Assembly (NCBI GenBank): GCA_963726335.1
Contig: CAVSCD010000011.1
Span: 787,449-851,448 of the forward strand
DNA: 64,000 bases
Direction: 5' to 3'
Origin: Candidatus Aminicenantes bacterium
Lineage (GTDB): Bacteria; Acidobacteriota; Aminicenantia; Aminicenantales; UBA8522
A model generated the notes under the pieces. That model was not told the origin of the DNA. It ran no database searches and saw only the letters and a program-made list of their open reading frames with translations. A program made the position numbers and the translations under genes. Shown in pieces: positions 15,285 through 33,285 of the stretch (position 1 is its first letter; the number at the start of each line of letters is the position of its first letter).

Positions 15285-17111
15285 TCAATGATCCGGAAAG
15301 CCGACCCGGCGCACGAGATCCTGAAACCTCGGGTCGGAGCGAAGAGTCTCCAGCAGGGGATGGACTCTAAGAAACGGCATATTGACGGATCGCTCTTCGA
15401 ACGCCCTTTCCAACCAAGCGAAGGCCTTGTCCCGGTTCCCTGCCTGTGCGTTCATCAATGCCATAAGGAAGCTCTCCACGTGTCCTTGTGCGGACATATG
15501 CTCCCATGTATCGATCCACTCCAGGACTTCGGATCGCTTGCCGATCCGACAAAAAGGATAGGCAAGATATGTTTCGATCATTTGCTGTTTCCCGACCTCC
15601 ACTAATTCCCTCGCTTTTGCCGAGCAGACGGCGGCATCGCGGTCCAGGCCCTTTCGCGCATAGGCTCCGGCCAGAAGGGCGAGCTCGAGAGGCCGGTCTT
15701 GTTCCATTTCCAGGGCGATCTTAAAATGGGTGATCGATTCATCATAGCGCCCGGCCAGAAAGAAAATCCAACCCAAGTGTCTTTCGGACTCAAAGGCGAC
15801 AGGATCAAGCTCGTGCGCTTTAAGCGCCTCAATGATCGCTTCGTCGAGTCGGCCCGTGATCGCCAGCTCATAAGAGTAAGCTTCATGGACACCGGAGCTA
15901 TTTGGGCTGAGCTCGATGGCTCTCCGCAACTCCGCCTCAGAGCCGGAGAAGTCCCAGTCGAATCTCCATTTCACCACGCCCAACGCCAAATGGGCTCCGG
16001 CCAGACTGTTGTCCAATTCAATGGCCTTCATCGCCTCGGCCTTGGCCTCGGGAAACATCGCGCGGGGAGTGCCCAAGCCCCAAGTTGCCGAGGAGCAATA
16101 TTTCTCGGCCAGAGCGGCGTGGCTCGGGGCGTATTCCGGGTCCAATTGAATGGATCTTCTGAGATAGGCGATACTGTTTTCTATCGATTCATTGATCCAT
16201 ACCCCCTCTTGCAGCGCCCTCAGATAGAGTTCATAGGCCTCGATACTTTCCGTCCGGCGCTTCGATAGCTTAGCCTTTTCACCGGCCAGAAGGGTAATTC
16301 TGAGCTTATCCGCCACAGCCAGGGAGATTTCGTCTTGGATAGCGAAGACATCCTTCATATCGCTGTCGAATACCGCCGACCAAAGATGGAAGCCGTCCGC
16401 GATGTTGATGAGCTGGACTCGGGCCCTGAGCCTGGATCCGACTTTCTGGATGCTTCCTTCGAGCACCGTCGCCACCCCCAGCTTCTTACCGATATCACGA
16501 ATGTCCTGTTCCTTGCCCTTGAAGAAAAAGACCGATGTCCTCGCGGGAACTTTAAGCCCGCCGATATTGCTGAGCTGTCCTATGATCTCGTCGGTTATGC
16601 CATCGCAGAACCATTCTTGGTCTTTTTGGGGGCTCATATCAACGAAAGGCAGAACGGCGATCGAATTTTTCCATTGGGAGACCGGGATGGTCTCTGATTC
16701 CGGGCCTTTCAGGTGAAGGAGAAGGTTGATATCCAAGAGGACCGCGGTCAAGACAACCAGGGGTATTAGGAGCAGCTCCAGCTTGAACTTCCTCGGCTTC
16801 TCCCGGCCAGAAAACCAGCGCCAGAGCAACGTGCAGATAAGAACACACAGGAGAGTGACAAACGTGATGTCGATGGTTTTATCTGGAAAATGATAGTGCG
16901 CCACCAGAATCCGGTCGACAAATTCTATGATCAGCCAGCCGCCGCCGATGAAGGCCGCCAGCGTCTCGATAATCCGCCGCTTTCGGAGCTTATGGACAAA
17001 GCCCCGGAGCAAAGACCCCTTCTTGTCCTCGGAAGGTGCCGCGCCTTCGCCTGAAGAGCCCATTGTCTCACCTGCTTTCTGGCCGCTGCCTGATTGGGCA
17101 AAGGTTAACAA
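15285..17111 (-). CDS. Membrane-anchored TPR-repeat protein with TolB-N-like periplasmic domain
   Basis: One TM segment, then KNSIAVLPFVDMSP...FCDGITDEIIGQLS (TolB amino-terminal-like motif), then multiple TPR repeats. Confidence 0.6.
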   Translation of the reverse strand: MLTFAQSGSGQKAGETMGSSGEGAAPSEDKKGSLLRGFVHKLRKRRIIETLAAFIGGGWLIIEFVDRILVAHYHFPDKTIDITFVTLLCVLICTLLWRWFSGREKPRKFKLELLLIPLVVLTAVLLDINLLLHLKGPESETIPVSQWKNSIAVLPFVDMSPQKDQEWFCDGITDEIIGQLSNIGGLKVPARTSVFFFKGKEQDIRDIGKKLGVATVLEGSIQKVGSRLRARVQLINIADGFHLWSAVFDSDMKDVFAIQDEISLAVADKLRITLLAGEKAKLSKRRTESIEAYELYLRALQEGVWINESIENSIAYLRRSIQLDPEYAPSHAALAEKYCSSATWGLGTPRAMFPEAKAEAMKAIELDNSLAGAHLALGVVKWRFDWDFSGSEAELRRAIELSPNSSGVHEAYSYELAITGRLDEAIIEALKAHELDPVAFESERHLGWIFFLAGRYDESITHFKIALEMEQDRPLELALLAGAYARKGLDRDAAVCSAKARELVEVGKQQMIETYLAYPFCRIGKRSEVLEWIDTWEHMSAQGHVESFLMALMNAQAGNRDKAFAWLERAFEERSVNMPFLRVHPLLETLRSDPRFQDLVRRVGFPDH

Positions 17112-17518
17112 TAAAGGGGGAGCCGGTCAATGGGAGGTCTTACCTTGCCGTGCGATACTAACGGAGATACGAGCGCGGCCAGCCAGCAGGGCAAAGACGG
17201 GGGAGTAACCAAAAAGATTCCCGGATATTTTTGGCATACAGGTTGACTGTCCTTCGCTCGCTCTTTATACGAAAACCGTTATCACAAAGAGGTCGATACC
17301 TCCTCCTGAACCCGTCCATTTCGCCATCGCCCTGCGCTCTGGACGGCGGGCAACCCCTCCCCGCCATCAGGAAGCAAGCCTTTCCAATGCCCAGCCATGA
17401 TTGTGCTCAAGTGTGTGCTCAACGGATGCCTAAAACAGGGTAAAGGTGTACGGAATTGAGACAATTTTCGAGTGTCGGGAATGATGCCAAAATGGCGGAT
17501 TCTCGGGGAATACGAGAG

Positions 17519-17592
17519 CGCGCCTGGAGGGACTCGAACCCCCGACCCGCTGCTTAGAAGGCAGCTGCTCTGTCCACCTGAGCTACAGGCGC
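17519..17592 (-). tRNA. tRNA-Arg (anticodon TCT)
   Basis: Minus-strand cloverleaf GCGCCTG...CAGGCGC-G; anticodon stem GCTGC/GCAGC with loop CTTCTAA; T-loop GGTTCGAGTCC. Confidence 0.85.
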
Positions 17593-17622
17593 GTGCATAG
17601 CCGGCCCGCCCGGGAGGAGTGA

Positions 17623-17697
17623 TCGGGGAGATCGGATTCGAACCGACGACCTCCTGCTCCCAAGGCAGGCGCGCTAACCAGGCTGCGCCACTCCCCG
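17623..17697 (-). tRNA. tRNA-Pro (anticodon TGG)
   Basis: Minus-strand cloverleaf CGGGGAG...CTCCCCG-A; anticodon stem CCTGC/GCAGG with loop CTTGGGA; T-loop GGTTCGAATCC. Confidence 0.85.
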
Positions 17698-17788
17698 CCG
17701 GCAAACCGAACGCAGAGAGATTAGCAGACCCCCCCCCGCGTTGTCAATTTGAGGGGGCCGGATGGCGATGCATCCCGGGAGAGGCGGG

Positions 17789-18907
17789 CTACTTCTTGAA
17801 GGCCTTCATGACCTCGTCGGCGATCCGGCTGATCAAGGCCTCGTCCCCGTTATCCGGACGCCTGTCCGGCGTCCCTTCCCCCAGCCTCGGACAGGGCTTT
17901 GTCCCCTGGAGGCGGCACGGCCCGGCCCCGCTGTCGCAGGCGCCCGGGCAGACCGTGATGCTGGTCAGGCTGTCCGGCATGTCCGACAGGGTGCATTCCC
18001 GGCCGCTGAGGCGAGGATCGGGCAGGTCGAGCTTCCTCTTGACGTCGAGCAGGGCCTCGAACTTGTCCCGGGGAATGGTCTTGATGGGGGCGCCCAGCTG
18101 CGAGGCGATGATGAGCGTCTGGCAGTAGGTGTCGATGACCTCGATGCACCATTCGGCATGGGTGACCGTATCGGCCCAGCAGACGACGCCGTGGTTCCCG
18201 AGGAGAATGGTGTTGTGATCGCCCACGAGCTCGACGACCTTCCGGGCGATCTCGATCGTGCCCGGCGTGCCGTACGGCGCGAACGCGGCGCAGCCTACAA
18301 AGACCTCGGCCTCGGGGATGACGCGCTCGGGGGGGACCATCCCGGTGATGGCGTAGGCCGTGGCGTGCGGCGGGTGGGCGTGAATGCAGGCGCGGGCCTT
18401 GGGCTGGGCCTTATAAATCTCGAGATGGAGGATGACCTCGCTCGTCCGCTTCCGGCGGCCCGCGACCTGGTTCCCCTCGAAGTCGACCAGGCAGAGGTCG
18501 TCGGGCGTCAGGTCCGCCTTGCTGAGGAGAGTCGGCGTGCACAGCACGTACTTCTCCCCGATCCGGCAGGAGATGTTGCCGCCGTTGCCGTCGACGTAGG
18601 AACGCATCCAGAGCTTATGCCCGGCGGCGACGATCTCGTCCTTGAGGGCCTTCGCCTCGGCGGAGGAAAAGACGGCCTCGGGAGATCCCGGTGAGGTGAA
18701 AGAGGAACCCGCCGGTCCCGCGCCGCCCGCCGGGCTCGGACGGCCCTCACGGACGATGGTCAGGCCGGCGATCGCCGCGGTGTCGCAGGCGATGGAGGTG
18801 ACGACCGCGTCGCCGTCGGCCACGATCTCCGTGTAGCCGTCGCGGGCCGCTTGGCCGACGATCTGGCCCGAGATGACGTTGGTGCCGCGCAAGTGGAGCT
18901 GTTTCAT
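17789..18907 (-). CDS. Class II (fuculose/rhamnulose-phosphate type) aldolase with N- and C-terminal extensions resembling BMC encapsulation peptides
   Basis: Aldolase core GNGGNISCRIG and zinc ligands ACIHAHPPHATAYA; about 80-aa N-terminal extension with G/P/S linker; C-terminal Cys-rich tail ending in amphipathic DEALISRIADEVMKAFKK. Confidence 0.8.
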   Translation of the reverse strand: MKQLHLRGTNVISGQIVGQAARDGYTEIVADGDAVVTSIACDTAAIAGLTIVREGRPSPAGGAGPAGSSFTSPGSPEAVFSSAEAKALKDEIVAAGHKLWMRSYVDGNGGNISCRIGEKYVLCTPTLLSKADLTPDDLCLVDFEGNQVAGRRKRTSEVILHLEIYKAQPKARACIHAHPPHATAYAITGMVPPERVIPEAEVFVGCAAFAPYGTPGTIEIARKVVELVGDHNTILLGNHGVVCWADTVTHAEWCIEVIDTYCQTLIIASQLGAPIKTIPRDKFEALLDVKRKLDLPDPRLSGRECTLSDMPDSLTSITVCPGACDSGAGPCRLQGTKPCPRLGEGTPDRRPDNGDEALISRIADEVMKAFKK

Positions 18908-18911
18908 GATT

Positions 18912-19205
18912 TTAATCCGTTGGTCGATATGTCACCGCGTCGATGATGCCGCTGACGTAGGCGTCGACCGGCGCGCCGGCCGGAAGCCAGGGGTTCGAGG
19001 CTTCCCGCCCCTCCTCGAAGCAGACCGTCTGCCCGGTTCCCGCCCCCAGGTGATCGGCGGCGACGACCTCCCGGCCGCCGCCCCGCGAGTTCCCGGCCTT
19101 CAGGTTGTCCGCCGTCACCGGCTCGACGATCAGGTAGCGGGTGCCTTCCATGACGGCGAGTCCCCGGCTCAAGACCACGGTGCCCTTGACGATGCCCAGC
19201 CTCAT
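18912..19205 (-). CDS. BMC vertex protein (BMC-P, EutN/PduN/CcmL family)
   Basis: 97 aa, MRLGIVKGTVVLSRG... typical EutN/CcmL fold sequence. Confidence 0.85.
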   Translation of the reverse strand: MRLGIVKGTVVLSRGLAVMEGTRYLIVEPVTADNLKAGNSRGGGREVVAADHLGAGTGQTVCFEEGREASNPWLPAGAPVDAYVSGIIDAVTYRPTD

Positions 19206-19489
19206 CCGCGTTCTCCGGAGCCCGGTGGCGTCCGGCCGTCGACGATTCCCACGGCCGTCAGGCGCGCCGGCGCCGTCTTGTAGCCCGTGAGCGTTCGGAC
19301 GAGGTCGCCGTCCGTCGAGACCAGGACGAGGTCCCCCAGGCCGGCGCCGACGGCGTCGAGGACCACGATCGGCTCGCCGGTCCGCGAGCCGTCGGGCTCC
19401 GAGCGCCGGGCGACGAGGAGTTTTCGGCCCCGGAGGCTCTCGTGGCTGACCGTCGCCACCGCCGTGCCCTCGATTTTCGCCAGGTACAT
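19202..19489 (-). CDS. BMC vertex protein (BMC-P), second paralog
   Basis: 95 aa, MYLAKIEGTAVATVSHESLRGRKLLVA... EutN/PduN-like; 4-nt overlap with next gene. Confidence 0.85.
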   Translation of the reverse strand: MYLAKIEGTAVATVSHESLRGRKLLVARRSEPDGSRTGEPIVVLDAVGAGLGDLVLVSTDGDLVRTLTGYKTAPARLTAVGIVDGRTPPGSGERG

Positions 19490-19502
19490 GGATCTCTATT
19501 CC

Positions 19503-20960
19503 TCAGAAAAAGTCGTACCGGCCGCCGATCACCATCTGTCTCTGACGGGTGAAGGTCAGAGGCGTCGTCACGCCCTCGCCGGTGGCCGTGGCGATGCTGT
19601 AGCTTAGGTACCCGGGGCCGTCCACACCGAGCGCCGCGGTGCAGGGCGCGTTCCGGATGAACAGCGTGGTCCCCATCAGCCGGGCCATCCGCCGGGCCGT
19701 TTCATCATTCCGGGTATGGATGAGGGCCGAATGCCGGTAACCGTGTTCCGCCCTCAGGGCGGCCGCGATCGCGGCGTCGACGTCTCTCACCCGGACGACC
19801 GGCAGGAACGGCATCATTTGTTCCTCCCGGACGAAGACATGATCCTCGCCGGTCTCCCCGAACAGGAGGTCGACGTTATCTCCAACCGTCAAGCCCGCCG
19901 CCCGGCCCAGAAAAGCGGGGCTCCGGCCGATGTATTCGCGGTTCACGTGGAGCTCGCCGGACTTCTTGTCGGGCAGGAACGCGGCCTCGGTCAGTCGCCC
20001 GATCTGGCGCTGGTCAAGCTCGACCGCGCCCGCCCGGCGCATGGCCGCCATGAACTCCTCCGCGACGGCCTCGACGACGAAGACTTCTTTGTCGCCGATG
20101 CACAGGAGGTTGTTGTCGAAGGCCGCGCCGAAAATGATATGCTTGACGGCCGAGGGGAGGTCGGCGGTCTCGTCGACGACGACGGGGGGATTGCCCGGCG
20201 CCGCCGCGATGACCCGCTTGCCCGCCCGCATCGCCACCCTGACCACCTCCGGTCCGCCCGTGATGGTCAGGAGGGCGACGCCGGGATGTCGGAAAAGCTC
20301 GCCGGCCGCCTCGATCGAAGGCTTGGCCATGACCGTGATCAAGTTCTCCAGGCCGGTCTTGGCCTTGATGCGCCGGTTGATCTGCTGCAGCGCGTAGGTC
20401 AGGCAGCGGGCGGCCGCGGGGTGCGGTGAAAAGACGGCCGTGTTGCCCGCGGCGATGATGTTGATGGCGTTTCCGGCCATGGTCGGGATGCTGTGCGTCG
20501 CCGGCGTGACCATCCCGATGACGCCGAAAGGCGCGGCGGCGATGAATTCCGTTCCGGCGTCCCCGACCCGGACGCTCGTCCGCAGGGCCTCGACCCCGAC
20601 CACCCTGGACAGGATGGTCAGCTTCTGGATCTTGTGGTCCTCCCGGCCGAGGCGGGTCTCCTGAAATTCCAGGCGGGCCAGCTCCGCGGCGTTCTCCACG
20701 CAATAACCCTTGATGATGTCGACGATGACGCCCCGCTGCTCGAGCGACAGGGCGGCGAGCTTCGGCTGGGCCCTGCCCGCGGCGGCCACGGCGTCGTCGA
20801 CCGCGGGGAACACTCCGTCCGCACCCGTCCGCAGGTCCCGGTCTAACCCCGGGATTTCCCTCGGGCCGCCCGCGTCCGCCTCGGCGGTCAACCGGCGCAC
20901 GACCTCGGCAACGACGGCCGTGATATCGAGGTCACGATAGGGAGGTGAAGAACTCGTCAT
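19503..20960 (-). CDS. CoA-acylating aldehyde dehydrogenase (PduP/EutE-like) with N-terminal encapsulation peptide
   Basis: 485 aa; EutE/PduP-type ALDH core with catalytic Cys in NNLLCIGDKE; N-terminal amphipathic DITAVVAEVVRRLTAEA followed by G/P/D-rich linker. Confidence 0.9.
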   Translation of the reverse strand: MTSSSPPYRDLDITAVVAEVVRRLTAEADAGGPREIPGLDRDLRTGADGVFPAVDDAVAAAGRAQPKLAALSLEQRGVIVDIIKGYCVENAAELARLEFQETRLGREDHKIQKLTILSRVVGVEALRTSVRVGDAGTEFIAAAPFGVIGMVTPATHSIPTMAGNAINIIAAGNTAVFSPHPAAARCLTYALQQINRRIKAKTGLENLITVMAKPSIEAAGELFRHPGVALLTITGGPEVVRVAMRAGKRVIAAAPGNPPVVVDETADLPSAVKHIIFGAAFDNNLLCIGDKEVFVVEAVAEEFMAAMRRAGAVELDQRQIGRLTEAAFLPDKKSGELHVNREYIGRSPAFLGRAAGLTVGDNVDLLFGETGEDHVFVREEQMMPFLPVVRVRDVDAAIAAALRAEHGYRHSALIHTRNDETARRMARLMGTTLFIRNAPCTAALGVDGPGYLSYSIATATGEGVTTPLTFTRQRQMVIGGRYDFF

Positions 20961-20984
20961 ATCAGAACGCGCTCCATTCCCCGG

Positions 20985-21281
20985 CTAGGGTTTTTTCAGG
21001 GCTTTGCCGTTGACCTCGACCGAATCGACGATCCCGATGATCACGGCGTCGACGGGGCTGTCCTTGGTGCACTCGGTCATCCGGGCGGAGCTCCCCTGGG
21101 TGAACATGACGAGATCGCCGATGCCGCAGTTCACGCAGTCGACCGCCACGATGCTGCTGCCCTGCGGGACAAGCGTTTTCTCCTGGCTGACCTGGGGCTG
21201 AATGAGGAGGAGCTTCATCCCCAGGAATTTCGGATGCTTCTGCGAGGCGACCACCGTCCCCAAGACTTTGGCTAAGAACAT
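20985..21281 (-). CDS. BMC vertex protein (BMC-P), third paralog
   Basis: 98 aa MFLAKVLGTVVASQKHPKFLGMKLLLIQP..., EutN/PduN family. Confidence 0.8.
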   Translation of the reverse strand: MFLAKVLGTVVASQKHPKFLGMKLLLIQPQVSQEKTLVPQGSSIVAVDCVNCGIGDLVMFTQGSSARMTECTKDSPVDAVIIGIVDSVEVNGKALKKP

Positions 21282-21303
21282 GGCACCCTTCCTGTCGGTC
21301 CGC

Positions 21304-21579
21304 TCACCGCTTCGGGAGCATGCTCTGGATCTCGTCGTGCGGCCGCGACAGGACCTGCGAGCTGACGACCTGGCCCATCTCCCGGGCGACGGCCACGCCC
21401 GCGTCCAGCGCGGACCTCACGGCGGCCACGTCGCCCTGGATGTAACAGGAGCACAGGCCGCTGCCGATCTTCTTCCAGCCGATAAATTCCACGGCCGCCG
21501 ACTTGAGCATCGCGTCGGCCGCCACGACGAGGGCGGTCAGGCCTTTCGTCTCGATCATTCCGATCGCCGGTTTTGCCAT
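21304..21579 (-). CDS. BMC shell hexamer protein (BMC-H, PduA/EutM-like)
   Basis: 91 aa; MAKPAIGMIETKGLTALVVAADAMLKSAAVEF... canonical PF00936 sequence. Confidence 0.9.
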   Translation of the reverse strand: MAKPAIGMIETKGLTALVVAADAMLKSAAVEFIGWKKIGSGLCSCYIQGDVAAVRSALDAGVAVAREMGQVVSSQVLSRPHDEIQSMLPKR

Positions 21580-21597
21580 GGTTGCGACTCCTTTATG

Positions 21598-22770
21598 TCA
21601 GGACGCCGGGCGTCCCGCCGGTTTCTGCGAATTGATTTCATTTAAGAGTTCCGCCGCGGCCCGGGCCACGACGATCTCCTCGTTGGTGGCGACGGTCCAG
21701 ACCTCGGTTGCCGAGCCGTCGGCGGATATCCTCGACTCACCGGCCGCCGAGAGATTGCGCCGGCCGTCGATGCGGATGCCCAGGGGCTCGAGCCCCCGCA
21801 GGACCTCGGCCCTGACCCAGGGCGAGTGCTCGCCGATGCCGCCCGAAAAAGTGATCACGTCGAGCGTGCCGAGCTCGAGAAGGAAGGCTCCCAGGTGGCG
21901 CCGCACGGCGTAGACATAGGCATCGAGGGCGAGGCGGGCCCGCGGATCTCCCCGGCCCGCCGCGGCCTCGAGGTCGCGCACGTCGCCGCTCGTTCCCGAA
22001 AGCCCCGCCAGTCCAGATTCCGTGGACAACAGGCGGGCCATCTCGTCGGGGCCGAGCGCGTGTTTCTTCATCATGAAGAGCACGGCGAAGACGTCGATAT
22101 CGCCGACGCGATTATTCTGGGGAATTCCGCTCTGGGGCGTCATGCCGAAGCTCGTGTCGACGGCCCGGCCGTTCCTGACGGCGGCGAGGCTCGAGCTGCC
22201 GCCCAGATGGCAGGAGATTTGGTTGATTTCCTCCCGGCCGAGCAGTCGCCGCGCCCGTTCGCTCGCGTAGCGATGGCTGGCGCCGTGAAAGCCGAAGCGG
22301 CGGATGCCCTCCGCCTCGCGCCAGGACCAGGGCACCGCGTAGACGCAGGCCGCCTCGGGCAGGCCGGTAAAGAACGCCGTCTCGAACAGGGCCACCGCGG
22401 GGACCAGGGGCGCAACGGCCGCGAAGGCCCTCATGGCCGCGACATAAGGCGGATTGTGAGCGGGCACCAGGAACGCATACTCTTCCATGGCCTCCAAGAC
22501 CTCCGGGGTGACGAGGACGGCGCCGGTCAGCCCGCGGGCGTGCACGGCCTTGAACCCGACCGCGGCGAGCTCGTCCAGCGAGGCCAGGGGTTTTCCCGCG
22601 CCGATGAGCGAAGCCAGGCAGCGGTTGATGGCCGCCGGGAAATCGGGGCAGTCGCCCCCCTCCCGGCCGATCCGCTCGAACCGGCCTTCGGCGAGCACGC
22701 GCTCGTCGCCCGTATCGATCAGCCGATACTTGAACGACGTGCTGCCGATATTCGGCACGAGAATCTTCAT
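21598..22770 (-). CDS. ackA: Acetate/propionate kinase
   Basis: MKILVPNIGSTSFKYRL start, HLGGSSS and GIGEHS motifs of acetokinase family. Confidence 0.9.
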   Translation of the reverse strand: MKILVPNIGSTSFKYRLIDTGDERVLAEGRFERIGREGGDCPDFPAAINRCLASLIGAGKPLASLDELAAVGFKAVHARGLTGAVLVTPEVLEAMEEYAFLVPAHNPPYVAAMRAFAAVAPLVPAVALFETAFFTGLPEAACVYAVPWSWREAEGIRRFGFHGASHRYASERARRLLGREEINQISCHLGGSSSLAAVRNGRAVDTSFGMTPQSGIPQNNRVGDIDVFAVLFMMKKHALGPDEMARLLSTESGLAGLSGTSGDVRDLEAAAGRGDPRARLALDAYVYAVRRHLGAFLLELGTLDVITFSGGIGEHSPWVRAEVLRGLEPLGIRIDGRRNLSAAGESRISADGSATEVWTVATNEEIVVARAAAELLNEINSQKPAGRPAS

Positions 22771-22783
22771 GACGGACGCCGCC

Positions 22784-23065
22784 TCAGGCCTTCCTCTCCA
22801 CGAGTCCCAAGATGGAGTCGTGGGGCTGCGGGATGACGTGCGCCGCGATCACCTCGGCGCCGGCCGCCTTGAGGGTCGCGAGCCCGGCCTCGATCGCCGC
22901 CTTGACATTGCCCACCTCGCCCTTGACGACGGTCGTGACATAACCGCCGCCGATCTCCACGGTCCTGATCAGGGTCACGTTGGCGGCCTTGCACATGGCG
23001 TCGCCGGCCGTGATCAATCCGACCATTCCCCGGATCTCCAACATGCCGATGGCTTGATTACTCAT
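22784..23065 (-). CDS. BMC shell hexamer protein (BMC-H)
   Basis: 93 aa; AIGMLEIRGMVGLITAGDAMCKAANV... PF00936. Confidence 0.9.
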   Translation of the reverse strand: MSNQAIGMLEIRGMVGLITAGDAMCKAANVTLIRTVEIGGGYVTTVVKGEVGNVKAAIEAGLATLKAAGAEVIAAHVIPQPHDSILGLVERKA

Positions 23066-23113
23066 TCCGGTCCTCTCTTTTTTCGTTCGCCGTTCCGTGA
23101 CCGCCGTCCGGCC

Positions 23114-23401
23114 TCAGGCCTTCTGGGGCTTGGGTTTCCCCGTGAAAGACTCGAGATCCTCGTACGGGTTCGGGATCACCTGAGCCGCGACGACCTTGCC
23201 GAGTTTTGTCGCGGCCTCGGCGCCGGCGTCGACCGCGGCCTTGACGGCGGCGACTTCGCCCTCGAAAAAGGCCGTTACCATGCCCGAGCCGGCCGGCTCC
23301 CAGCGGATGAAGTCCACGGCGGCCGTCTTGCAGGCCGTGTCGGCGGCCTCGAGCATCGGCACAAAGCCGATCGTCTCGATCATGCCCAGCGCTTTTTTCA
23401 T
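23114..23401 (-). CDS. BMC shell hexamer protein (BMC-H) with short C-terminal tail
   Basis: 95 aa; ALGMIETIGFVPMLEAADTACKTAAVDF... PF00936. Confidence 0.9.
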   Translation of the reverse strand: MKKALGMIETIGFVPMLEAADTACKTAAVDFIRWEPAGSGMVTAFFEGEVAAVKAAVDAGAEAATKLGKVVAAQVIPNPYEDLESFTGKPKPQKA

Positions 23402-24135
23402 GCACGCACTCCTTTGTTGAAGATATCGCTGACGACGTTGAGTTTCCCTTTGGCGGGCCTCAGCGAGACCCGGCTGGCCGAGGCGAGATGACAGGCGTTG
23501 GCCTCGTCCGTGTCCAGATGGACCTCCAGCTTATAGCTCGGGTCGACGCGGACATGCACCCGCCCGAAGATGACGGGCGCGTCGCCCTCGACCACGAGCT
23601 CCATGATGTCCTTGTCGGCGACCCCGAACCGGGCCGCGTCGCGGTCGCTCATGTGGGCGTGAATGGCCGCCCGGATCACCCCTTGCTTGAGCTCCAGCAT
23701 CCCGGCCGGTCCCATGAGCCAGGCCCCGGGCGTGCCCTCGATATCGCCCGACATCCGGACGGGCACCTTTTCGATGCCGAGAAGCACGACATCGGTGTAG
23801 GCCAGCTCCACTTGCGAATACTCCCTGAGAGGGCCCAGAATGCGCAGCCCTGTGATCAACCGGCTCTTCGGGCCGATGATCGTCAAGGACTCCGACGCCG
23901 CGAAATGGCCCTCCTGGTAGAGCGGCCGCAGGGACGTCAGCTTGGCGCCCGTCCCGAACAGTGTTTCGAAATCCCTTGGGCACAGGTGAGCGTGGCGCGC
24001 CGAGACGTGAACCTTGAGCGGCGAGGCCACCCCGTCGGGGCGGACGGCGTCCCTACCCTTCCCGAATTCGCCCAGGACCTCGCGGACGACCCTCTCGACG
24101 GCGGCCCGGTCCAATGTCATGGCCATCGTCATCAC
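23398..24135 (-). CDS. pduL: PduL-type phosphotransacylase with N-terminal encapsulation peptide
   Basis: Two PduL repeats with metal-binding His motifs (HVSARHAHL; RAAIHAHMS; HVRVD); N-terminal amphipathic DRAAVERVVREVLGEF. Confidence 0.9.
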   Translation of the reverse strand: MMTMAMTLDRAAVERVVREVLGEFGKGRDAVRPDGVASPLKVHVSARHAHLCPRDFETLFGTGAKLTSLRPLYQEGHFAASESLTIIGPKSRLITGLRILGPLREYSQVELAYTDVVLLGIEKVPVRMSGDIEGTPGAWLMGPAGMLELKQGVIRAAIHAHMSDRDAARFGVADKDIMELVVEGDAPVIFGRVHVRVDPSYKLEVHLDTDEANACHLASASRVSLRPAKGKLNVVSDIFNKGVRA

Positions 24136-24138
24136 TCC

Positions 24139-24699
24139 TTATACGTACTCCCGGAGCAGCTCGGCCGACGGAGCCGAGATCAGGGCGCTCGCCACGAGCA
24201 TTCCCGACTCGGCCATGGCCGCCGCCGCCGCGTCCAGGCCGGCCCGGACCTCTCCCAGCCCGCCGCAGAAAAGCACCAGGCCTTTCCCGCCCATGGCCAT
24301 GGCCAGGTGGATGCGGAGAAGCTTGACCTCGGCGTTCTTGACGGCCTCGTCGGCGGCCTCCACGGCGCTGGCCGCCGAGAAGGTCTCGACCGCGCCGAGC
24401 GCTCCCGGCAACTCGTTGCCGAGCTCAACCGACAGGCTCAGGGCGGGCAAGACGTCGGGATGGAGGTTGCTGATGATCCGGTTCTCGATGATCGTGCCCG
24501 CGCCCGCCCGGGTGGCGGCTTCGAGCGAAGCTTTGACCGCGGATACGGAGCCGGCGACGACGATCAGGAACTTGCCCGAGCAGACCGGCCGGGCGATCAA
24601 GATGCTCACGGGCGCCGTTTTCAGGAGCGCGTCCTCGACCTGGTAGCCGAGGGCGATCGAGCTGAGCTCGAGAATTCCGATGTTGTTGATCTCGTCCAT
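24139..24699 (-). CDS. Tandem-domain BMC shell protein (BMC-T, PduT-like)
   Basis: 186 aa with two consecutive BMC (PF00936-like) domains. Confidence 0.8.
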   Translation of the reverse strand: MDEINNIGILELSSIALGYQVEDALLKTAPVSILIARPVCSGKFLIVVAGSVSAVKASLEAATRAGAGTIIENRIISNLHPDVLPALSLSVELGNELPGALGAVETFSAASAVEAADEAVKNAEVKLLRIHLAMAMGGKGLVLFCGGLGEVRAGLDAAAAAMAESGMLVASALISAPSAELLREYV

Positions 24700-24709
24700 G
24701 TTCCTTAGC

Positions 24710-26002
24710 TCATTCGGCTTCGATCACGACCGCGTCCGCGACCGACAGGACCCTGCCGTCGATGCTGGCGTGGACGGGAGCGCCGAGTTTTCCTTTCGGG
24801 ATTTCACCCAGACAATCCCCCTCTTTGACGCGCTGTCCGACCCGGGCCGTCGGCTCGGCCGCCACGCCCGCGTGCTGGCGAAGCGGAATGCGGACGCACC
24901 GCGGGCTCACCCGGACGTCACGCAACGGAGCCTGATCCAGGAGGTTCGCCAGGCCGAGCTTGCGCACGAGCCGAGACATGGGCAGGAGGCGGCCGAACCG
25001 CAGGGGATGCGGCCTGGGGGGCGGCGTGACGGATCGAGGAGGCCCGCTTCCCGCCGATTTCTTTTTGACGATGGCGCAGATCTCGGCGGGATCGAGGTCC
25101 TCGGGGCAGGCGGCCAGGCTGCAGAGGCGGCAGCCGGAGCAATATTCGGCGTAGAGCGCCGCTCCGTCGTCGGGCAGTCCCAGCCCGAAGCTGCGCATGA
25201 CGCGGTGCGGCTCGACCGGATGATTCAACAGGTAGCGGGGGCACAGCTCGGTGCAGAAAGAGCATTGGTCGCAGGCGGCCCGGGCGATCCGCCGGACCGC
25301 CTCCGGGCGTCGGGCATACCGGCGGATGAGACCGTGATCCCCGGGGAGAACGACCAACCCGGCGGTCGTCTTGGTCACGGGCTCGGAAAGATCGCCGGCG
25401 AGCCGGCCCATCATGACGCCGCCGACGAGGACGCCGAAGTCGGGGAGGACGGCGCCGCCGGCGGCCGCGATGACATCGGCGAACGGCGTGCCGACAGGGA
25501 CCTCGAGCGTCCGCGGCCTGGCGACCAGCCCGGCCACGGTCAGGAACTTGCGGGTGACCGGCCGGTCGAGCCCGATATTGACCAGCGTCTCCACGTTGAG
25601 GACGACGGCGCCGACGTCTTTGGGCAGGCCGCCCGGGCCGATGATCCGTCCCGTGACCTCATAGACCAGGACAAACTCATCGCCCGCGGGATAGACATCG
25701 TCAAGGGGCTGAACCGAGACTGCGGCCGGGCAGCGTCCGGCGAGGCCGGCGATGAGATCGCCGTGCTTTTTCTTGATCCCGATGATCCCGCGGCGGGCCG
25801 AGACGCGCTTCATGGCCGCGGCCAGCCCGGCGAAGAATTCATCGGGGCGGTGGGCCAGCAACTCCTGGTCCTTATGGATGAGGGGCTCGCATTCGGCGGC
25901 ATTGACGATGAGCGTATCGACGGTCGCGGCGAGCTTGACCGAGGAGGGGAACCCGCCGCCCCCGCAGCCGACCACGCCGTGCTCGAAGATGACGTCGATC
26001 AT
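24710..26002 (-). CDS. PduS/RnfC-like Fe-S flavoprotein
   Basis: Start set at MIDVIFEH; GCGGGGFPSSVKL nucleotide-binding loop; two 4Fe-4S motifs CDQCSFCTELCP and CSGCRLCSLAACP; C-terminal barrel-sandwich-like domain. Confidence 0.75.
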   Translation of the reverse strand: MIDVIFEHGVVGCGGGGFPSSVKLAATVDTLIVNAAECEPLIHKDQELLAHRPDEFFAGLAAAMKRVSARRGIIGIKKKHGDLIAGLAGRCPAAVSVQPLDDVYPAGDEFVLVYEVTGRIIGPGGLPKDVGAVVLNVETLVNIGLDRPVTRKFLTVAGLVARPRTLEVPVGTPFADVIAAAGGAVLPDFGVLVGGVMMGRLAGDLSEPVTKTTAGLVVLPGDHGLIRRYARRPEAVRRIARAACDQCSFCTELCPRYLLNHPVEPHRVMRSFGLGLPDDGAALYAEYCSGCRLCSLAACPEDLDPAEICAIVKKKSAGSGPPRSVTPPPRPHPLRFGRLLPMSRLVRKLGLANLLDQAPLRDVRVSPRCVRIPLRQHAGVAAEPTARVGQRVKEGDCLGEIPKGKLGAPVHASIDGRVLSVADAVVIEAE

Positions 26003-26288
26003 GTGTAGATAAAATAGATGGTATGGACGATTTTTACAAGTCCCCCATGAAAGCCGGGGCCGGAGCTGACGGCGAGCCGCCGGCGGTCGCCCCCCATAAC
26101 CCCTTTGGGTGAGAGGGCAGGGGGCAATATCACCTTCAGAATCCTCGGGGGGGGTGATTGACCCTCCCATATGCCGAGGGCATCATGGGGCCGTCCTGAA
26201 AGAGAACCGTAGGCGTAGAGGAGATTTTCGGGTTCGATGCGAGAATTCGTGACACAATGCGGCGTCTATTTTACAGGAAGGGTCAATG

Positions 26289-26341
26289 TTGACGGAAATT
26301 GTCATTAATTTGTTGACAACTTTTGTCAGTTCATCTATTTT
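26289..26341 (+). promoter_or_regulatory. Putative sigma-70 promoter of pilB with two tandem TTGAC-N6-TGTCA operator-like motifs
   Basis: TTGACA (26313-26318) -17 nt- TATTTT (26336-26341), about 17 nt before pilB ATG; motif TTGACnnnnnnTGTCA occurs at 26289-26304 and 26313-26328 in AT-rich divergent intergenic region. Confidence 0.4.
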
Positions 26342-26358
26342 GATAGGGTTGTTTTAAG

Positions 26359-28086
26359 ATGGGTTCAAACCTCGGCGAACTTCTCCTTCGTGAAAAAGTC
26401 CTCACGCCCGACCAGCTGAAGTCTGCCCTCGAGACCCAGAAGGAAAAAAACGTTCCCCTCCAGACGGCCATCGTTTCGCTCGGCCTGATCTCCGAGGAAG
26501 ACATGGCCCAGGCCTTGAGCCGGCAGCTGGGCTATCCCTACATCGACCTCGACCAGTTCGAGGTCTACCCCGACGTCGTCGGCCTGATCCCGGTGGATAT
26601 CGTCAAGAAGTACATGATCATGCCCATCCACCGGATCCGCTCCTTCCTGACCCTGGCGATGGTCGATCCGACCGACCTCGAGGTGCTCGAGGACGTCCGC
26701 TTCCGGACGGGGCTGAGCATCCAGCCCGTGATCGCCTCCGAGTCGGGGATCATGAACGCCATCAACAAGTATTACGGGTCGTCGAGCGCCCTCCGGGTGA
26801 AGAGGATCATCGAGGACATCGAGCTTGCCGAGGACACGCGGGTGAACATCATCCAGGAGGAGAGGGACAGCGCCGGCGTCGAAGAGCTGGTGCAGGCCAC
26901 CGAAGAGGCCCCCATCATCAAGCTCGTCAACGAGATCTTCATCGACGCCATCAAGAAGGGCGCGAGCGACGTGCACTTCGAGCCCTACGAGGAAAGCTTC
27001 CGCGTCCGCTTCCGGCTGGACGGCGTGCTCCACGAGATGATGAGCCTGCCGATGAAATTCAGGAGCCCGGTCCTCTCCCGCATCAAGATCCTCTCGAACA
27101 TGGACATCGCCGAGAAGCGCCTGCCGCAGGACGGCCGCATCAAGATGAAGGTCAAGCTGGACAACGGCGGCCGGAAAGAAGTCGACATGCGCGTCTCGGC
27201 GCTGCCGACGATCTTCGGCGAGAAGATCGTCTCCCGGATCCTGGATAAGCAGATGCTGAAGCTCGACCTGACCGAGCTGGGGTTCGAGGCCGAGTCGCTC
27301 CAGATCTTCAAGGAGGCCATCAGCCGGCCCTGGGGGATCATCCTGGTGACCGGCCCGACCGGCAGCGGCAAGACCAACACCCTGTACTCGGCCGTCTCGA
27401 CGCTGAACTCCGTTGAGAAGAACATCATGACGGCCGAGGACCCGGTCGAGTTCAACATCCAGGGCATCAACCAGGTCCACATCAAAGAGGAGATCGGGCT
27501 GAATTTCCCGAACACGCTGAGGTCGTTCCTCCGCCAGGACCCGGACATCATGCTCATCGGGGAAATGCGCGACTTCGAGACGGCGGACATCGCCATCAAG
27601 GCCGCGCTCACCGGTCACCTCGTGTTCTCGACGCTCCACACGAACGACGCCCCGAGCAGCGTCATGCGGCTGATCAACATGAACGTCGAACCGTTCCTGA
27701 TCGCCGACTCGGTGATCCTGATCGCCGCCCAGCGGCTGGTCAGGAAGCTTTGCGACAGGTGCCGGGTGCCCCACAAGCTCCCCGAGAAGGCGCTCGTCGA
27801 TATCGGGTTCACGGCCGAGGAAGCCAAGGCCGTCCAGATCTATAAGCCCGGCGGCTGCGACCACTGCAACAATACCGGCTACAAGGGCCGGACCGGGCTC
27901 TACGAAGTCATGCGCGTCGACGACGAAATCCGCGAGATGATCCTGCTCCGGGCCCAGTCCCGGGAGATGAAGAAGAAGGCCGTCATCAAAGGCATGATCA
28001 CCTTGCGGAGGAGCGGTTTGAGCAAGATCAAAAACGGGGTCACCTCCGTGGAGGAAGTGCTCCGCGAGAGCGTCAAGGACCAATAA
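26359..28086 (+). CDS. pilB: Type IV pilus assembly ATPase PilB (GspE family)
   Basis: 575 aa; N-terminal T2SSE_N domain, Walker A GPTGSGKT, Asp/His boxes and tetracysteine zinc motif CDRC...CDHC. Confidence 0.9.
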   Translation: MGSNLGELLLREKVLTPDQLKSALETQKEKNVPLQTAIVSLGLISEEDMAQALSRQLGYPYIDLDQFEVYPDVVGLIPVDIVKKYMIMPIHRIRSFLTLAMVDPTDLEVLEDVRFRTGLSIQPVIASESGIMNAINKYYGSSSALRVKRIIEDIELAEDTRVNIIQEERDSAGVEELVQATEEAPIIKLVNEIFIDAIKKGASDVHFEPYEESFRVRFRLDGVLHEMMSLPMKFRSPVLSRIKILSNMDIAEKRLPQDGRIKMKVKLDNGGRKEVDMRVSALPTIFGEKIVSRILDKQMLKLDLTELGFEAESLQIFKEAISRPWGIILVTGPTGSGKTNTLYSAVSTLNSVEKNIMTAEDPVEFNIQGINQVHIKEEIGLNFPNTLRSFLRQDPDIMLIGEMRDFETADIAIKAALTGHLVFSTLHTNDAPSSVMRLINMNVEPFLIADSVILIAAQRLVRKLCDRCRVPHKLPEKALVDIGFTAEEAKAVQIYKPGGCDHCNNTGYKGRTGLYEVMRVDDEIREMILLRAQSREMKKKAVIKGMITLRRSGLSKIKNGVTSVEEVLRESVKDQ

Positions 28087-28099
28087 GGAGACACCCTTC

Positions 28100-29215
28100 A
28101 TGGCCAAGACCATTCAGGAGTTCCTGGAGATCGCCGTCAGGGAAGATGCCAGCGACCTCCACATCACGACCCATATCCCGCCGCGGCTCCGCGTCCACGG
28201 CGTCCTCAAGAACATCGAACATCCGGCGCTGACGCCGTCGGAGACCAAGCAGATCATCTACAGCGTCCTGACCGACCGGCAGAAGCGGCAGTTCGAGGAA
28301 AAGCTCGAGCTCGACTTTTCGTTCGGGCTCAAGGACCTGGGCCGGTTCCGGGCGAACGTCTTCCTGCAGAAGGGGGCCGTGGCGGGCGCCTTCCGCAGGT
28401 TCCTGCCCAACATGTGGAGCTTCGCCCAGCTCGGGATCCCGCAGCGGATCGCCCAGCTCTGCTACCTGCCCCGGGGCCTGGTGCTGGTGACGGGGCCGAC
28501 GGGCTGCGGGAAATCGACGTCGATCGCCTGCATGATCGACCACATCAACGTCGAGCGGGGCGTTCACATCGTGACCATCGAAGACCCGATCGAGTACTAT
28601 TTCGTTCCCAAGAAATCCATCATCAACCAGCGCGAGCTGTTCGTCGACACGCTGTCCTATGCCAACGCGCTCCGCTCGGTCCTCCGCGAGGACCCGGATG
28701 TCGTCTTCGTCGGCGAGATGCGGGACTACGAAACCGTCGAAGCCTGCCTCCGGGTGGCCGAGACGGGCCACCTCACCTTCTCCACCCTGCACACGAACTC
28801 GGCGGCCGAATCCATCTCCCGGATCATCGACATCTTTCCCGCCCAGTACCAGTCCCAGATCAGGATCATGCTCTCCATGTCTCTCGAGGCCGTCCTGACC
28901 CAGGCGCTGCTGCCCCGGGCGGACGGCAAGGGGCGGGTGCTGGCCATGGAGATTCTCATTCCCAATTCCGCCGTCCGGAACCTGATCCGGGAGAACAAGG
29001 TCCACCAGATCTACTCGACGATGCAGATGGGCCAGGAAAAGTACGGCATGCAGACGTTCAACCAGTCGCTGGCCGCCCTGTATTTCCGCAAGCTGATCAC
29101 GCTCGAGACGGCGATGAACATTTCGTCCTTCCCCGAGGAGCTGACCGACATCATCCAGAGGCGGGAGGGACTGAAACAGGCGTCGGTCACGGCTTCCCAG
29201 AAAGACCGGAAATAA
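28100..29215 (+). CDS. pilT: Type IV pilus retraction ATPase PilT
   Basis: 371 aa; Walker A GPTGCGKST, PilT-type AIRNLIRE motif. Confidence 0.9.
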   Translation: MAKTIQEFLEIAVREDASDLHITTHIPPRLRVHGVLKNIEHPALTPSETKQIIYSVLTDRQKRQFEEKLELDFSFGLKDLGRFRANVFLQKGAVAGAFRRFLPNMWSFAQLGIPQRIAQLCYLPRGLVLVTGPTGCGKSTSIACMIDHINVERGVHIVTIEDPIEYYFVPKKSIINQRELFVDTLSYANALRSVLREDPDVVFVGEMRDYETVEACLRVAETGHLTFSTLHTNSAAESISRIIDIFPAQYQSQIRIMLSMSLEAVLTQALLPRADGKGRVLAMEILIPNSAVRNLIRENKVHQIYSTMQMGQEKYGMQTFNQSLAALYFRKLITLETAMNISSFPEELTDIIQRREGLKQASVTASQKDRK

Positions 29216-29227
29216 GAGGAGAGCAGC

Positions 29228-30430
29228 ATGGCCACTTTTATTTGGAAGGGCAAGAACCGTTACGGCGACGCCGTGGGGGGAGAGCGCGTCGCCTCCTCGA
29301 TCGAAGAGGTGAAGGCGGCCCTGCAGAAGGAGCAGATCGCCGCCAGCTCCATCACCGCCAAGAGCGGCCGGTTCTCGATCCCGTTCCTGAAGCGGGAAAA
29401 GGTGAAGCTCAAGGAGCTGGCCGTCTACAGCCGGCAGCTGTCCGTCCTGATCGACGCCGAGCTGCCCCTGATGCAGAGCCTGGGCATTCTGGCCGAGCAG
29501 ACCAAGAACAAGTACTTCAAGCGCGTCATCACCACCATCCGCGAGGACGTCGAGGCCGGGTCGACGCTGAACCAGGCCAAGAGGAAATTTCCCAAGGTTT
29601 TCGACGACCTCTACTGCAACCTGATCGCCTCGGGCGAGCAGAGCGGCTCGCTGGACATCATGCTCCGCCGGCTGTCCGAGTACATCGAAAAAACGGTCAA
29701 GCTGCGGGCCAAGGTGAAGCAGGCGATGATCTATCCGAGCGCCATCCTCATCTTCTCGATCGTGGTGGCGATTTTCCTGCTCTGGAAGGTCATCCCCGTC
29801 TTCGCCTCCATCTTCATCGAGCTGGGCGCCGAGCTGCCCGCCCTGACCGCCTTCGTCATCGCGCTGAGCCGGTTTGTCGAGAAATACATTATCTTAATTG
29901 TCCTGGCCCTCATCGGCCTGGTGATCGGGTTCAGGTATTTCCGGAAAACCGAGCAGGGGCGCTGGGTCACCGACCGCTGGATCCTCAAGATACCGCTGTT
30001 CGGCGAGCTCCTGAGAAAGGTGGCCATCTCCCGGATCACCCGGACCATGGCCACCCTGGTGTCGGGCGGCGTGCCGATGCTCGAAGCCCTGCGGATCACC
30101 TCCACGACTGCCGGGAACATCATCCTCGAATCCGCCGTCATGAACGCCCGGCAGAGCGTCTCCGAGGGCAAGAGCCTGACCGACGCCTTCAAGGAGACAG
30201 GCCACTTCCCGTTCATGCTGACCCAGATGGTCAGCGTGGGCGAGGCGACGGGCACCCTGGACGAGATGCTCTCCAAGCTCGCGGATTTCTACGACGAAGA
30301 GGTCGACGCCCAGGTCTCCGCGCTCCTCTCGATCATGGAGCCGATACTGCTCATCTTCGTCGGCGGCATGGTCGGCTCGCTCGTCATCTCCATGTACCTG
30401 CCGATCTTCAGCCTGATGCAGCAGTTCTGA
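29228..30430 (+). CDS. pilC: Type IV pilus platform protein PilC (GspF family)
   Basis: 400 aa, two GspF repeats with three TM segments. Confidence 0.9.
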   Translation: MATFIWKGKNRYGDAVGGERVASSIEEVKAALQKEQIAASSITAKSGRFSIPFLKREKVKLKELAVYSRQLSVLIDAELPLMQSLGILAEQTKNKYFKRVITTIREDVEAGSTLNQAKRKFPKVFDDLYCNLIASGEQSGSLDIMLRRLSEYIEKTVKLRAKVKQAMIYPSAILIFSIVVAIFLLWKVIPVFASIFIELGAELPALTAFVIALSRFVEKYIILIVLALIGLVIGFRYFRKTEQGRWVTDRWILKIPLFGELLRKVAISRITRTMATLVSGGVPMLEALRITSTTAGNIILESAVMNARQSVSEGKSLTDAFKETGHFPFMLTQMVSVGEATGTLDEMLSKLADFYDEEVDAQVSALLSIMEPILLIFVGGMVGSLVISMYLPIFSLMQQF

Positions 30431-30436
30431 GGCCGG

Positions 30437-31730: not shown

Positions 31731-31739
31731 GGGCACACC

Positions 31740-33157: not shown

Positions 33158-33269
33158 GTTGCCAAATTATGTGACAATATGACATATTGTGTCACTTCTA
33201 ATCGGATCGCGTCCTCATTCGTCGGCATAAGTTATTATGTCATTAAATGAATTATGAAAATTCAGGAGC

Positions 33270-33285
33270 TGGCACGGAAATTGCT
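33270..33285 (+). promoter_or_regulatory. Sigma-54 (-24/-12) promoter upstream of pilin gene
   Basis: cTGGCACGgaaaTTGCTa matches the RpoN consensus TGGCAC-N5-TTGC exactly; about 75 nt upstream of pilin ATG, with SD AAGGAGGA at 33345-33352. Confidence 0.6.

Follow-up and report, generated by a model that had tools for sequence, protein, structure and literature searches.

The 64-kb stretch of DNA analysed here (contig CAVSCD010000011.1; hereafter, the window) carries on its minus strand, between positions 17789 and 26002 (~8.2 kb), a real and intact operon of 12 genes for a bacterial microcompartment (BMC). In the order of transcription, these genes encode a PduS-like flavoprotein, a trimeric shell protein with two BMC domains (BMC-T), a PduL-type phosphotransacylase, two hexameric shell proteins (BMC-H), an acetate/propionate-family kinase (AckA), a third BMC-H, a pentameric shell protein (BMC-P), a coenzyme A (CoA)-acylating aldehyde dehydrogenase (AldDH), two further BMC-P proteins and, as the signature enzyme, a class II aldolase. 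A preliminary description of this DNA, made without database searches, had listed the genes in this order, on one strand and with short gaps or overlaps, as an operon of the Planctomycetes/Verrucomicrobia type of microcompartment (PVM). Every open reading frame (ORF) is present as described, and successive genes are spaced by 10, 3, −4, 48, 13, 18, 22, 24, 13, −4 and 4 nt. Across the 64 kb, 53 ORFs of at least 80 amino acids (aa) were called on the basis of the GC content at third codon positions (GC3), and all 12 ORFs of the operon match the expected Pfam families above the gathering scores, including the BMC, EutN_CcmL, PTAC and Aldolase_II profiles by which the shell proteins, PduL and the aldolase had been expected to be recognisable.

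Gene products of the operon

The shell protein genes comprise three matching PF00936 and three matching PF03319 (EutN_CcmL), in addition to that for the BMC-T protein (186 aa; 24139–24699) with its two BMC domains. The BMC-H proteins are encoded at 23114–23401 (95 aa; E 4e-26), 22784–23065 (93 aa; E 2.5e-23) and 21304–21579 (91 aa; E 1e-26), the second of them showing, in its translation, the KAAN and PQPH motifs of the canonical facet type. The BMC-P genes lie at 20985–21281 (98 aa; E 4e-28), 19202–19489 (95 aa; E 7e-23) and 18912–19205 (97 aa; E 2e-17), and the first of them is collinear with the first BMC-P gene of the PVM loci of Verrucomicrobia.

Among the enzymes, PduL (23398–24135; Pfam PTAC, E 2e-64) scores 222.6 with NCBIfam NF011652 (cut-off 209), has the solved relative 5cuo (E 2e-35) and retains the His motifs, as read from the translation. 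AckA (390 aa; 21598–22770; PF00871, E 9e-94) scores 304 with TIGR00016 (cut-off 293); an encapsulation peptide is not evident on this kinase. AldDH (485 aa; 19503–20960; Pfam Aldedh) reaches a score of 532 with NF011927, the aldehyde dehydrogenase subfamily PRK15398 (cut-off 403), which we take to be the EutE/PduP type; its catalytic Cys287 lies within NLLCIGD, a motif whose cysteine is kept in seven loci.

Three of the enzymes carry terminal helices resembling encapsulation peptides. The N-terminal helices of AldDH (aa 12–28, nt 20877–20927, DITAVVAEVVRRLTAEA) and of PduL (aa 9–24, nt 24064–24111, DRAAVERVVREVLGEF) are each kept in seven loci, while the C-terminal helix of the aldolase (aa 356–372, nt 17792–17842, EALISRIADEVMKAFKK) is conserved and amphipathic and follows a variable linker. 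Each of the three adjoins a variable linker rich in glycine, proline and alanine, and the helices with their Gly/Pro-rich linkers, which had been recognised on the same three enzymes before, hold up as features conserved across loci. The same enzyme termini carry encapsulation peptides in the published PVM, MIC4 and MUF types.

The class II aldolase (372 aa; 17789–18907; Aldolase_II E 4e-45 over aa 91–265) is composed of an N-terminal domain (aa 1–55), a disordered linker, a FucA-like core (aa ~83–300), a Cys-rich linker (aa ~305–350) and the C-terminal helix. Its closest solved relatives are the fuculose-phosphate aldolases 6btd, 4c24 and 1fua, and the motifs with the Zn-binding His and the catalytic Glu are invariant in 29 homologues. 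The N-terminal domain of 55 residues (nt 18743–18907) is predicted by AlphaFold as a β-α-β-α-β arrangement with a pLDDT of 92.8. It has no significant sequence match in Pfam or the PDB and displays only generic fold similarity, matches to designed TIM barrels being repeat artefacts. In a profile search of the fetched loci, it was found on every aldolase from a BMC locus (L001–L022, L074–L089), including the PVM aldolases of Verrucomicrobia, and on none of ~45 stand-alone aldolases. A library of 1.84 billion proteins contains ~1000 representatives of the domain. Some of these proteins have two to three tandem copies, the triple-copy ones ending in an encapsulation-peptide-like helix, and others have an N-terminal encapsulation-peptide-like helix and the domain at the C-terminus, with a weak PF02441 (PvmL-like) match in the library protein P0442; one enoyl-CoA hydratase also carries the domain. 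From MUF2 loci, a class I aldolase and a protein rich in cysteines have been reported to share an unnamed N-terminal domain (Sutter et al. 2021), which may be the same module as the one described here. As to its function, we would guess at a role in assembly or scaffolding.

The Cys-rich linker of the aldolase (aa ~305–345, nt ~17870–17995, minus strand) reads RECTLSD...VCPGACDSGAGPCRLQGTKPCP and contains five cysteines. Its pattern is kept in three related loci (L082, L084 and L086), with wider conservation of an ECxLCD motif. The linker may constitute a metal or redox site.

The first two genes of the operon encode a pair of putative electron-transfer proteins. The PduS-like protein (430 aa; 24710–26002) is an RnfC-type NADH/flavin mononucleotide (FMN) flavoprotein with two [4Fe-4S] clusters, for which Pfam matches to Complex1_51K, SLBB, Fer4_17 and RnfC_N were obtained. 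Its start at 26002 is right as originally placed, as judged from the start positions of five homologues; all five start at or after the equivalent of that position and none extends upstream, and a longer ORF of 486 aa starting at 26170 was rejected as spurious. Among solved structures, RnfC (7zc6_C, E 2e-41), the NADH-binding subunit of an NADH:ferredoxin oxidoreductase, is the most closely related. In comparison to RnfC, PduS is circularly permuted, with the RnfC_N barrel-sandwich domain moved from the N-terminal position that it has in RnfC to the C-terminus (PduS aa 369–425 align to RnfC 32–87). The motifs CDQCSFCTELCP and CSGCRLCSLAACP are conserved and the Fe-S motifs CxxCxxCxxxCP and CxxCxxCxxxxCP are retained. 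The BMC-T protein, in turn, has PduT as its closest solved relative (3n79, E 2e-34; also 3nwg). Its Cys40 (PVCSGKF; encoded at 24580–24582) aligns with the pore position of PduT, which is a Ser in the 3n79 chain and presumably corresponds to the [4Fe-4S]-binding pore Cys38, mutated in 3n79; it also aligns with a Cys in 3nwg and is kept in six of six homologues. Both the PduT-type nature of the BMC-T protein and its pore cysteine had been overlooked in the preliminary description.

Host lineage and kinship with catalogued organelle types

The PurD protein encoded in the window shares 88% identity with its counterpart in Candidatus Aminicenantes bacterium RBG_16_63_16 and 71–78% with several further proteins labelled Aminicenantes/Aminicenantales; the host, previously described as a high-GC Gram-negative lineage different from Planctomycetes and Verrucomicrobia, is by this identity a member of the Aminicenantes (OP8). 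NCBI ranks the host group as the phylum Ca. Aminicenantota. The closest homologues of the aldolase are labelled “Acidobacteriota bacterium”, a label that would fit the placement of the class Aminicenantia within Acidobacteriota which we understand GTDB to use.

For comparison, a set of 89 related loci was assembled and the 12 proteins of the operon were mapped onto them by tblastn; details of PVM were taken from Sutter et al. 2021 and Axen 2014. Two loci, L082 (GCA_040961015.1) and L084 (GCA_003141555.1), contain the same co-directional 12-gene operon, with L083 and L085 as near-duplicate records, and L081 is a partial copy of the operon at 99.9% identity. In crude neighbour-joining trees of AldDH, aldolase, PduL and the first BMC-P, the window, L082 and L084 form one clade apart from both Verrucomicrobia and Terriglobia, which L086 adjoins in the AldDH and PduL trees. 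Consistently, a search with AldDH returned a small clade at 78–99% identity followed, after a gap, by hundreds of acidobacterial sequences at ~58–65%. The relatives from the genome collection have ~50% identity among the matches listed.

The window and four loci of Verrucomicrobia (L074, L075, L078 and L080) have one and the same succession, PduL-H-H-AckA-H-P-AldDH-P-P-aldolase, with 34–58% amino-acid identity between the ten core genes and those of the verrucomicrobial PVM loci. The assignment to an aldolase-signature operon of the PVM family is borne out by this collinearity of 10 of the 12 genes. The operon further shares with PVM (the pvm locus of Planctopirus limnophila; L078) a class II aldolase that has the N-terminal domain described above as well as an encapsulation peptide at its C-terminus, an AldDH with N-terminal encapsulation peptide, PduL, an acetate kinase and the BMC-P triplet. 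The canonical PVM layout is given in the literature as PvmB, D, E, G, H, J, K, M, N and O plus DeoR, and in L078 Pfam matches reveal a divergent deoR gene as well as an Ldh/Mdh-family gene directly after that of the aldolase. In contrast, the operon here lacks DeoR, the Ldh-like PvmO and the PF02441 flavoprotein (PvmL), and its first two genes are those of PduS and a PduT-type BMC-T. The host also sets it apart, as PVM is reported only from Planctomycetes and Verrucomicrobia (Sutter et al. 2021) and the present host is one of the Aminicenantes. A conserved 434-aa protein with no Pfam match is encoded in all four verrucomicrobial PVM loci (L078 11884–13188), after the aldolase gene in L075 and after the Ldh-like gene in the other three, and is absent from the acidobacterial-type loci.

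The full gene content, including those parts that are foreign to PVM, is already catalogued as MIC4 (e.g., Melioribacter roseus), one of the metabolosomes with incomplete core (MIC), that is, without alcohol dehydrogenase (Sutter et al. 2021). Common to MIC4 and the operon here are an AldDH with N-terminal encapsulation peptide, the phosphotransacylase PTAC, a pfam00596 aldolase, a pfam00871 kinase, the BMC-P triplet, a PduS homologue beside a PduT-type BMC-T with pore cysteine, and the lack of an alcohol dehydrogenase. The earlier assignment stands with regard to the PVM family; the gene content as a whole does not represent a new signature. However, MIC4 has been reported from Actinobacteria, Bacteroidetes, Calditrichaeota, KSB1, Firmicutes and Ignavibacteria, and not from Aminicenantes or Acidobacteria. 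Hence, the locus is of the PVM/MIC4 aldolase kind in a new lineage, the match to MIC4 being one of described gene content. A literature search yielded no report linking Aminicenantes with an aldolase-type (PVM/MIC4) organelle, and the parts of the supplements of Sutter et al. 2021 that were searched contain no entry named “Aminicenantes”.

All 12 gene families, including PduS and BMC-T, recur at 45–67% identity in loci of Terriglobia (L003, L004, L088 and ~15 more), which, unlike the operon here, follow the order AckA-PduL-H-H-H-P-AldDH-P-P-aldolase-DeoR, with AckA before PduL, a divergent PduS/BMC-T pair and DeoR after the aldolase. DeoR is found beside 31 of the related loci; it is absent from L082, L084 and the window. 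Other catalogued types are more distant. The ACI type likewise has an aldolase with C-terminal encapsulation peptide and the BMC-P triplet, but possesses a 2-hydroxyacid dehydrogenase of its own and three unknown proteins, and its AldDH, with C-terminal encapsulation peptide, resides on a satellite locus; membership in ACI was rejected, given that PF00389 and PF02826 have no match, and the three unknown proteins no counterpart, among the ORFs of the operon and the window and that AldDH is encoded in the main operon with an N-terminal helix. Class II aldolase, AldDH and PTAC are also combined in MUF3, MUF2, GRM5 and the Firmicute PVM-like type, and PduS/PduT occur in MUF3 as well; yet MUF3 and the Firmicute PVM-like type have only one BMC-P, or else BMC-P proteins in smaller number than BMC-H, GRM5 has a glycyl-radical enzyme, and in MUF2 the aldolase is on a satellite locus. 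As BMC-P and BMC-H proteins are equal in number here, three of each, and the nearest relatives are acidobacterial and verrucomicrobial, membership in the Firmicute PVM-like type was also rejected.

The two redox modules of these loci are distributed in an either/or fashion. PvmO and the PduS/BMC-T pair never occur together in the 89 related loci: PvmO, when searched for by tblastn with the L078 protein, was found only in three loci of Verrucomicrobia (L074, L078 and L080), and PduS/BMC-T only in ~20 acidobacterial-type loci (including L001, L003, L004 and L088), all of which are without the Ldh-like PvmO. This pattern lends comparative support, short of proof, to a functional substitution of one for the other. 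Conduction of electrons across the shell by PduS/PduT has been discussed before, as has the possibility that PduS stands in for a missing alcohol dehydrogenase, next to other roles proposed for PduS of B12-independent loci (Axen 2014). We propose that the PduS/PduT-type pair occupies the role of the redox partner, which would then be the rule in acidobacterial-type loci. The preliminary description had found neither an alcohol dehydrogenase nor a DeoR regulator at the locus and had regarded both as missing. Their absence extends to the 64 kb—no DeoR, Ldh/Mdh, iron-containing alcohol dehydrogenase (Fe-ADH) or PF02441 flavoprotein is present among the called ORFs—but, as far as redox balance is concerned, the gap need not be left unexplained, with the PduS/BMC-T pair as the candidate to fill it.

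The closest described counterpart of this pair is that of the Pdu microcompartment of Salmonella and Citrobacter, where the gene of an RnfC-like protein with FMN and two [4Fe-4S] clusters likewise lies beside that of a tandem-BMC trimer whose pore Cys binds [4Fe-4S]. In contrast to the present case, Pdu contains a B12-dependent dehydratase, for which its PduS reduces cobalamin. Since there is no B12 enzyme in the operon here, the role of PduS must differ from that in Pdu.

Proposed mechanism and alternatives

We regard it as rather probable, though far from certain, that this Aminicenantes chromosome harbours an intact catabolic microcompartment operon of the PVM/MIC4 aldolase family which operates as follows. 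A ketose-1-phosphate from the cytosol, most likely L-fuculose-1-phosphate or L-rhamnulose-1-phosphate, would enter a shell built from the three BMC-H, one BMC-T and three BMC-P proteins, into which AldDH and PduL would be targeted by their N-terminal and the aldolase by its C-terminal amphipathic helix. There, the encapsulated aldolase would cleave the substrate into dihydroxyacetone phosphate and an aldehyde, most likely L-lactaldehyde, which AldDH would convert to an acyl-CoA (lactyl-CoA) with formation of NADH. PduL would form the acyl-phosphate and regenerate CoA, and the acetate-family kinase, probably outside the shell, would yield ATP and the acid (lactate). NAD+ would be regenerated without reduction of half of the aldehyde to the alcohol, which is the PvmO route of the canonical PVM. 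Instead, the RnfC-like PduS would oxidise NADH via FMN and its two [4Fe-4S] clusters. The next electron carrier would be a [4Fe-4S] cluster in the pore of the PduT-type trimer, bound there by the three copies of Cys40, and an acceptor in the cytosol would finally take up the electrons. Transcription would proceed from a promoter directly upstream of the PduS gene, with no linked DeoR regulator.

Several observations weigh against this scheme. Neither an isomerase, a kinase or a transporter for fucose or rhamnose nor a regulator is encoded among the ORFs of the window. The best NCBIfam scores of the aldolase, 114 bits for OtnC-like and 102 bits for FucA, compare to equivalog cut-offs of 250; with the protein below every such cut-off, its substrate specificity stays unassigned. 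PduS bears no encapsulation peptide and may sit inside or outside the shell, with electrons flowing either way. What is established for PduS in Salmonella is a function as cobalamin reductase, from which the role assumed here is extrapolated, and other parts of the genome may code for a lactaldehyde reductase.

Fucose or rhamnose as the source of the substrate is, accordingly, the part of the scheme that we infer from relatives. An organelle of the same architecture could instead serve another substrate and aldehyde, such as glycolaldehyde from pentulose-1-phosphates or acetaldehyde from 5-deoxyribulose-1-phosphate. The low NCBIfam scores would place the aldolase in a subfamily of its own, the clade of the window forms a separate deep branch between those of Verrucomicrobia and Terriglobia, class II aldolases have been described as promiscuous in the literature, and the deoxyhexose genes not found in the window fit such a switch as well. 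Nonetheless, all the closest solved relatives of the aldolase are fuculose-phosphate aldolases, and the operon is fully collinear with the PVM type, which has been linked experimentally to fucose and rhamnose in the literature. Moreover, sugar-related genes are neighbours of two relatives—a fucose isomerase at L089 and GH123/GH127 at L086—which counts in favour of the deoxyhexose scheme, so that a different substrate appears somewhat unlikely. Less likely still is that PduS/BMC-T perform another redox job, be it the transfer of electrons into the lumen, the repair or assembly of metal centres, or aldehyde reduction itself. Such alternatives have been named for PduS of B12-independent loci (Axen 2014), and the five cysteines in the aldolase linker (aa 305–345) might hint at metal or redox chemistry. 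Opposed to this are the strict mutual exclusion, in the sampled loci, with PvmO as the only other candidate for NAD+ regeneration, and the kinship of PduS with the NADH-binding RnfC.

A third alternative concerns the origin of the operon, which might be a genomic island recently acquired and inserted beside a tRNA pair. The genes for tRNA-Pro(TGG) at 17623–17697 and tRNA-Arg(TCT) at 17518–17592, both on the minus strand and identified with ARAGORN and Rfam, do follow directly downstream, as had been noted; the pair begins 91 nt past the aldolase stop codon and adjoins the organelle locus without being part of it. Horizontal acquisition had been considered compatible with this tRNA pair at one boundary and with an AT-rich divergent promoter region at the other. 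In addition to the adjacency of tRNA genes, an island would account for the finding that L082 and L084 are ~80–81% identical to the window at the nucleotide level over 8.2 kb, the similarity starting and stopping at the operon ends with unrelated flanks. The same cassette is thus found in three different genomic contexts, which suggests mobility: within the lineage, either the cassette has moved or its surroundings have been rearranged. Recent acquisition from outside is, however, argued against by the composition of the operon, which in the proposed comparison with the flanks turned out to match that of housekeeping genes. Its GC3 is 0.877 vs. 0.833 ± 0.071 for the other genes of the window and its codon-usage distance 0.114 vs. 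0.123 ± 0.033; among pools drawn at random from the other genes of the window, 12.8% show a distance at least as large as that of the pooled operon genes (0.073). The 3' ends of both tRNA genes point away from the operon, and their adjacency is not kept in L082, L084, L086, L088, L089, L001 or L078. No integrase, transposase or att-like direct repeat was found around the locus, the direct repeats that do occur there reflecting the paralogy of BMC domains, and the AT-rich stretch is the promoter region of the neighbouring gene. Furthermore, the trees place the BMC genes nearer to the acidobacterial-type than to the verrucomicrobial clades, roughly according to host relationships, although most weakly so for the aldolase. 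Taken together, an inserted island seems improbable, more so than either of the two functional alternatives, and the earlier evidence for horizontal acquisition does not hold. The compositional outlier lies beyond the tRNA genes: a tetratricopeptide-repeat (TPR) gene (15285–17111, minus strand, 608 aa) with a GC content of 0.551, a GC3 of 0.663 and a codon-usage distance of 0.211. It is situated on the 3' side of the tRNA pair, where a tRNA-targeted island would sit, and any insertion at this pair would, if anything, be the TPR gene rather than the BMC operon. As a separate observation, L084 carries a tRNA-Sec gene (1985–2079, plus strand) ~830 nt upstream of the same BMC operon, which differs from the tRNA neighbours in the window.

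Returning to the aldolase-type organelle, we see in its presence here the addition of a lineage, together with an accessory module known from before, and not a new kind of system. It is well explained by known biology, and current understanding stands; both the idea of trans-shell electron transfer by PduS/PduT and the gene content of MIC4 are already published. What is extended is the range of the aldolase-type (PVM/MIC4) organelle, now including the Aminicenantes, which are widespread, uncultured and commonly taken to be anaerobic. In addition, the either/or pattern of PvmO and PduS/PduT lends comparative support to the published view that the latter can replace alcohol dehydrogenase in cofactor recycling. 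Only tentatively would we go further and suggest that the Aminicenantes/acidobacterial form is a functionally distinct PVM variant, in which all of the aldehyde would be oxidised because the NADH electrons would leave through a PduS-to-PduT [4Fe-4S] wire. If true, one ATP would be gained per aldehyde, with no propanediol as a by-product and with the NADH electrons exported to a cytosolic acceptor, and the operon would provide a compact natural 12-gene test system for NAD+ recycling in “incomplete-core” metabolosomes. As a second possibility, the 55-residue domain of the aldolase might be an undescribed assembly module. Being self-contained and compact (one promoter, 8.2 kb), the operon would also be a convenient construct for studying electron export across a protein shell.

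Promoters and genomic surroundings

A candidate promoter of the operon, TTGTAA-17 nt-TATTTT (26011–26039, minus strand), ends 8 nt before the PduS start codon ATG. In the window, L082 and L084, the element TTG(T/C)AA-17 nt-TATTTT recurs 6–8 nt before the start codon, with the remaining upstream DNA being unalignable. A promoter abutting the start codon in this way would probably give rise to a leaderless or nearly leaderless mRNA. An AT-rich divergent promoter region, as had been described at this end of the operon, does exist, although it is confined to 26240–26358 (GC 0.37) and holds a promoter-like site, TTGACA-17-TATTTT (26313–26341, plus strand), that faces pilB, whereas the operon's own site is the one next to the PduS start. 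With Rfam, no riboswitch or leader RNA was found, the two tRNAs being the only hits. Between the aldolase gene and tRNA-Pro, a consensus scan detected no convincing intrinsic terminator (fold z-score −0.14); a TTGACA-18-TAATCT element seen by eye before tRNA-Pro was rejected by the promoter scan.

The operon resides in ordinary chromosomal surroundings. One flank encodes MutL, PurD, PurE, an SHMT-like protein, a Ctp protease and TatC, and the other a type IV pilus cluster and, further on, LpxK, a lipid A acyltransferase, RNase PH and ComEC. In an ORF of 780 aa (39317–41659, minus strand), a class I/II aminotransferase domain is confined to residues 1–390, and the C-terminal half has no Pfam match. 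Next to the gene of a FecCD permease, another ORF, of 589 aa (61713–63482, minus strand) and with a low GC3 of 0.70, combines an N-terminal ABC ATPase part with a C-terminal periplasmic binding protein part (Peripla_BP_2); a genuine fusion, a frameshift and the artificial merging of ORFs are all conceivable here. The type IV pilus cluster (26359–34546, plus strand) is divergent from the operon and encodes PilB-like (T2SSE and MshEN domains), PilT-like and PilC-like proteins along with a histidine kinase, a sigma-54 response regulator and two prepilin-type proteins.

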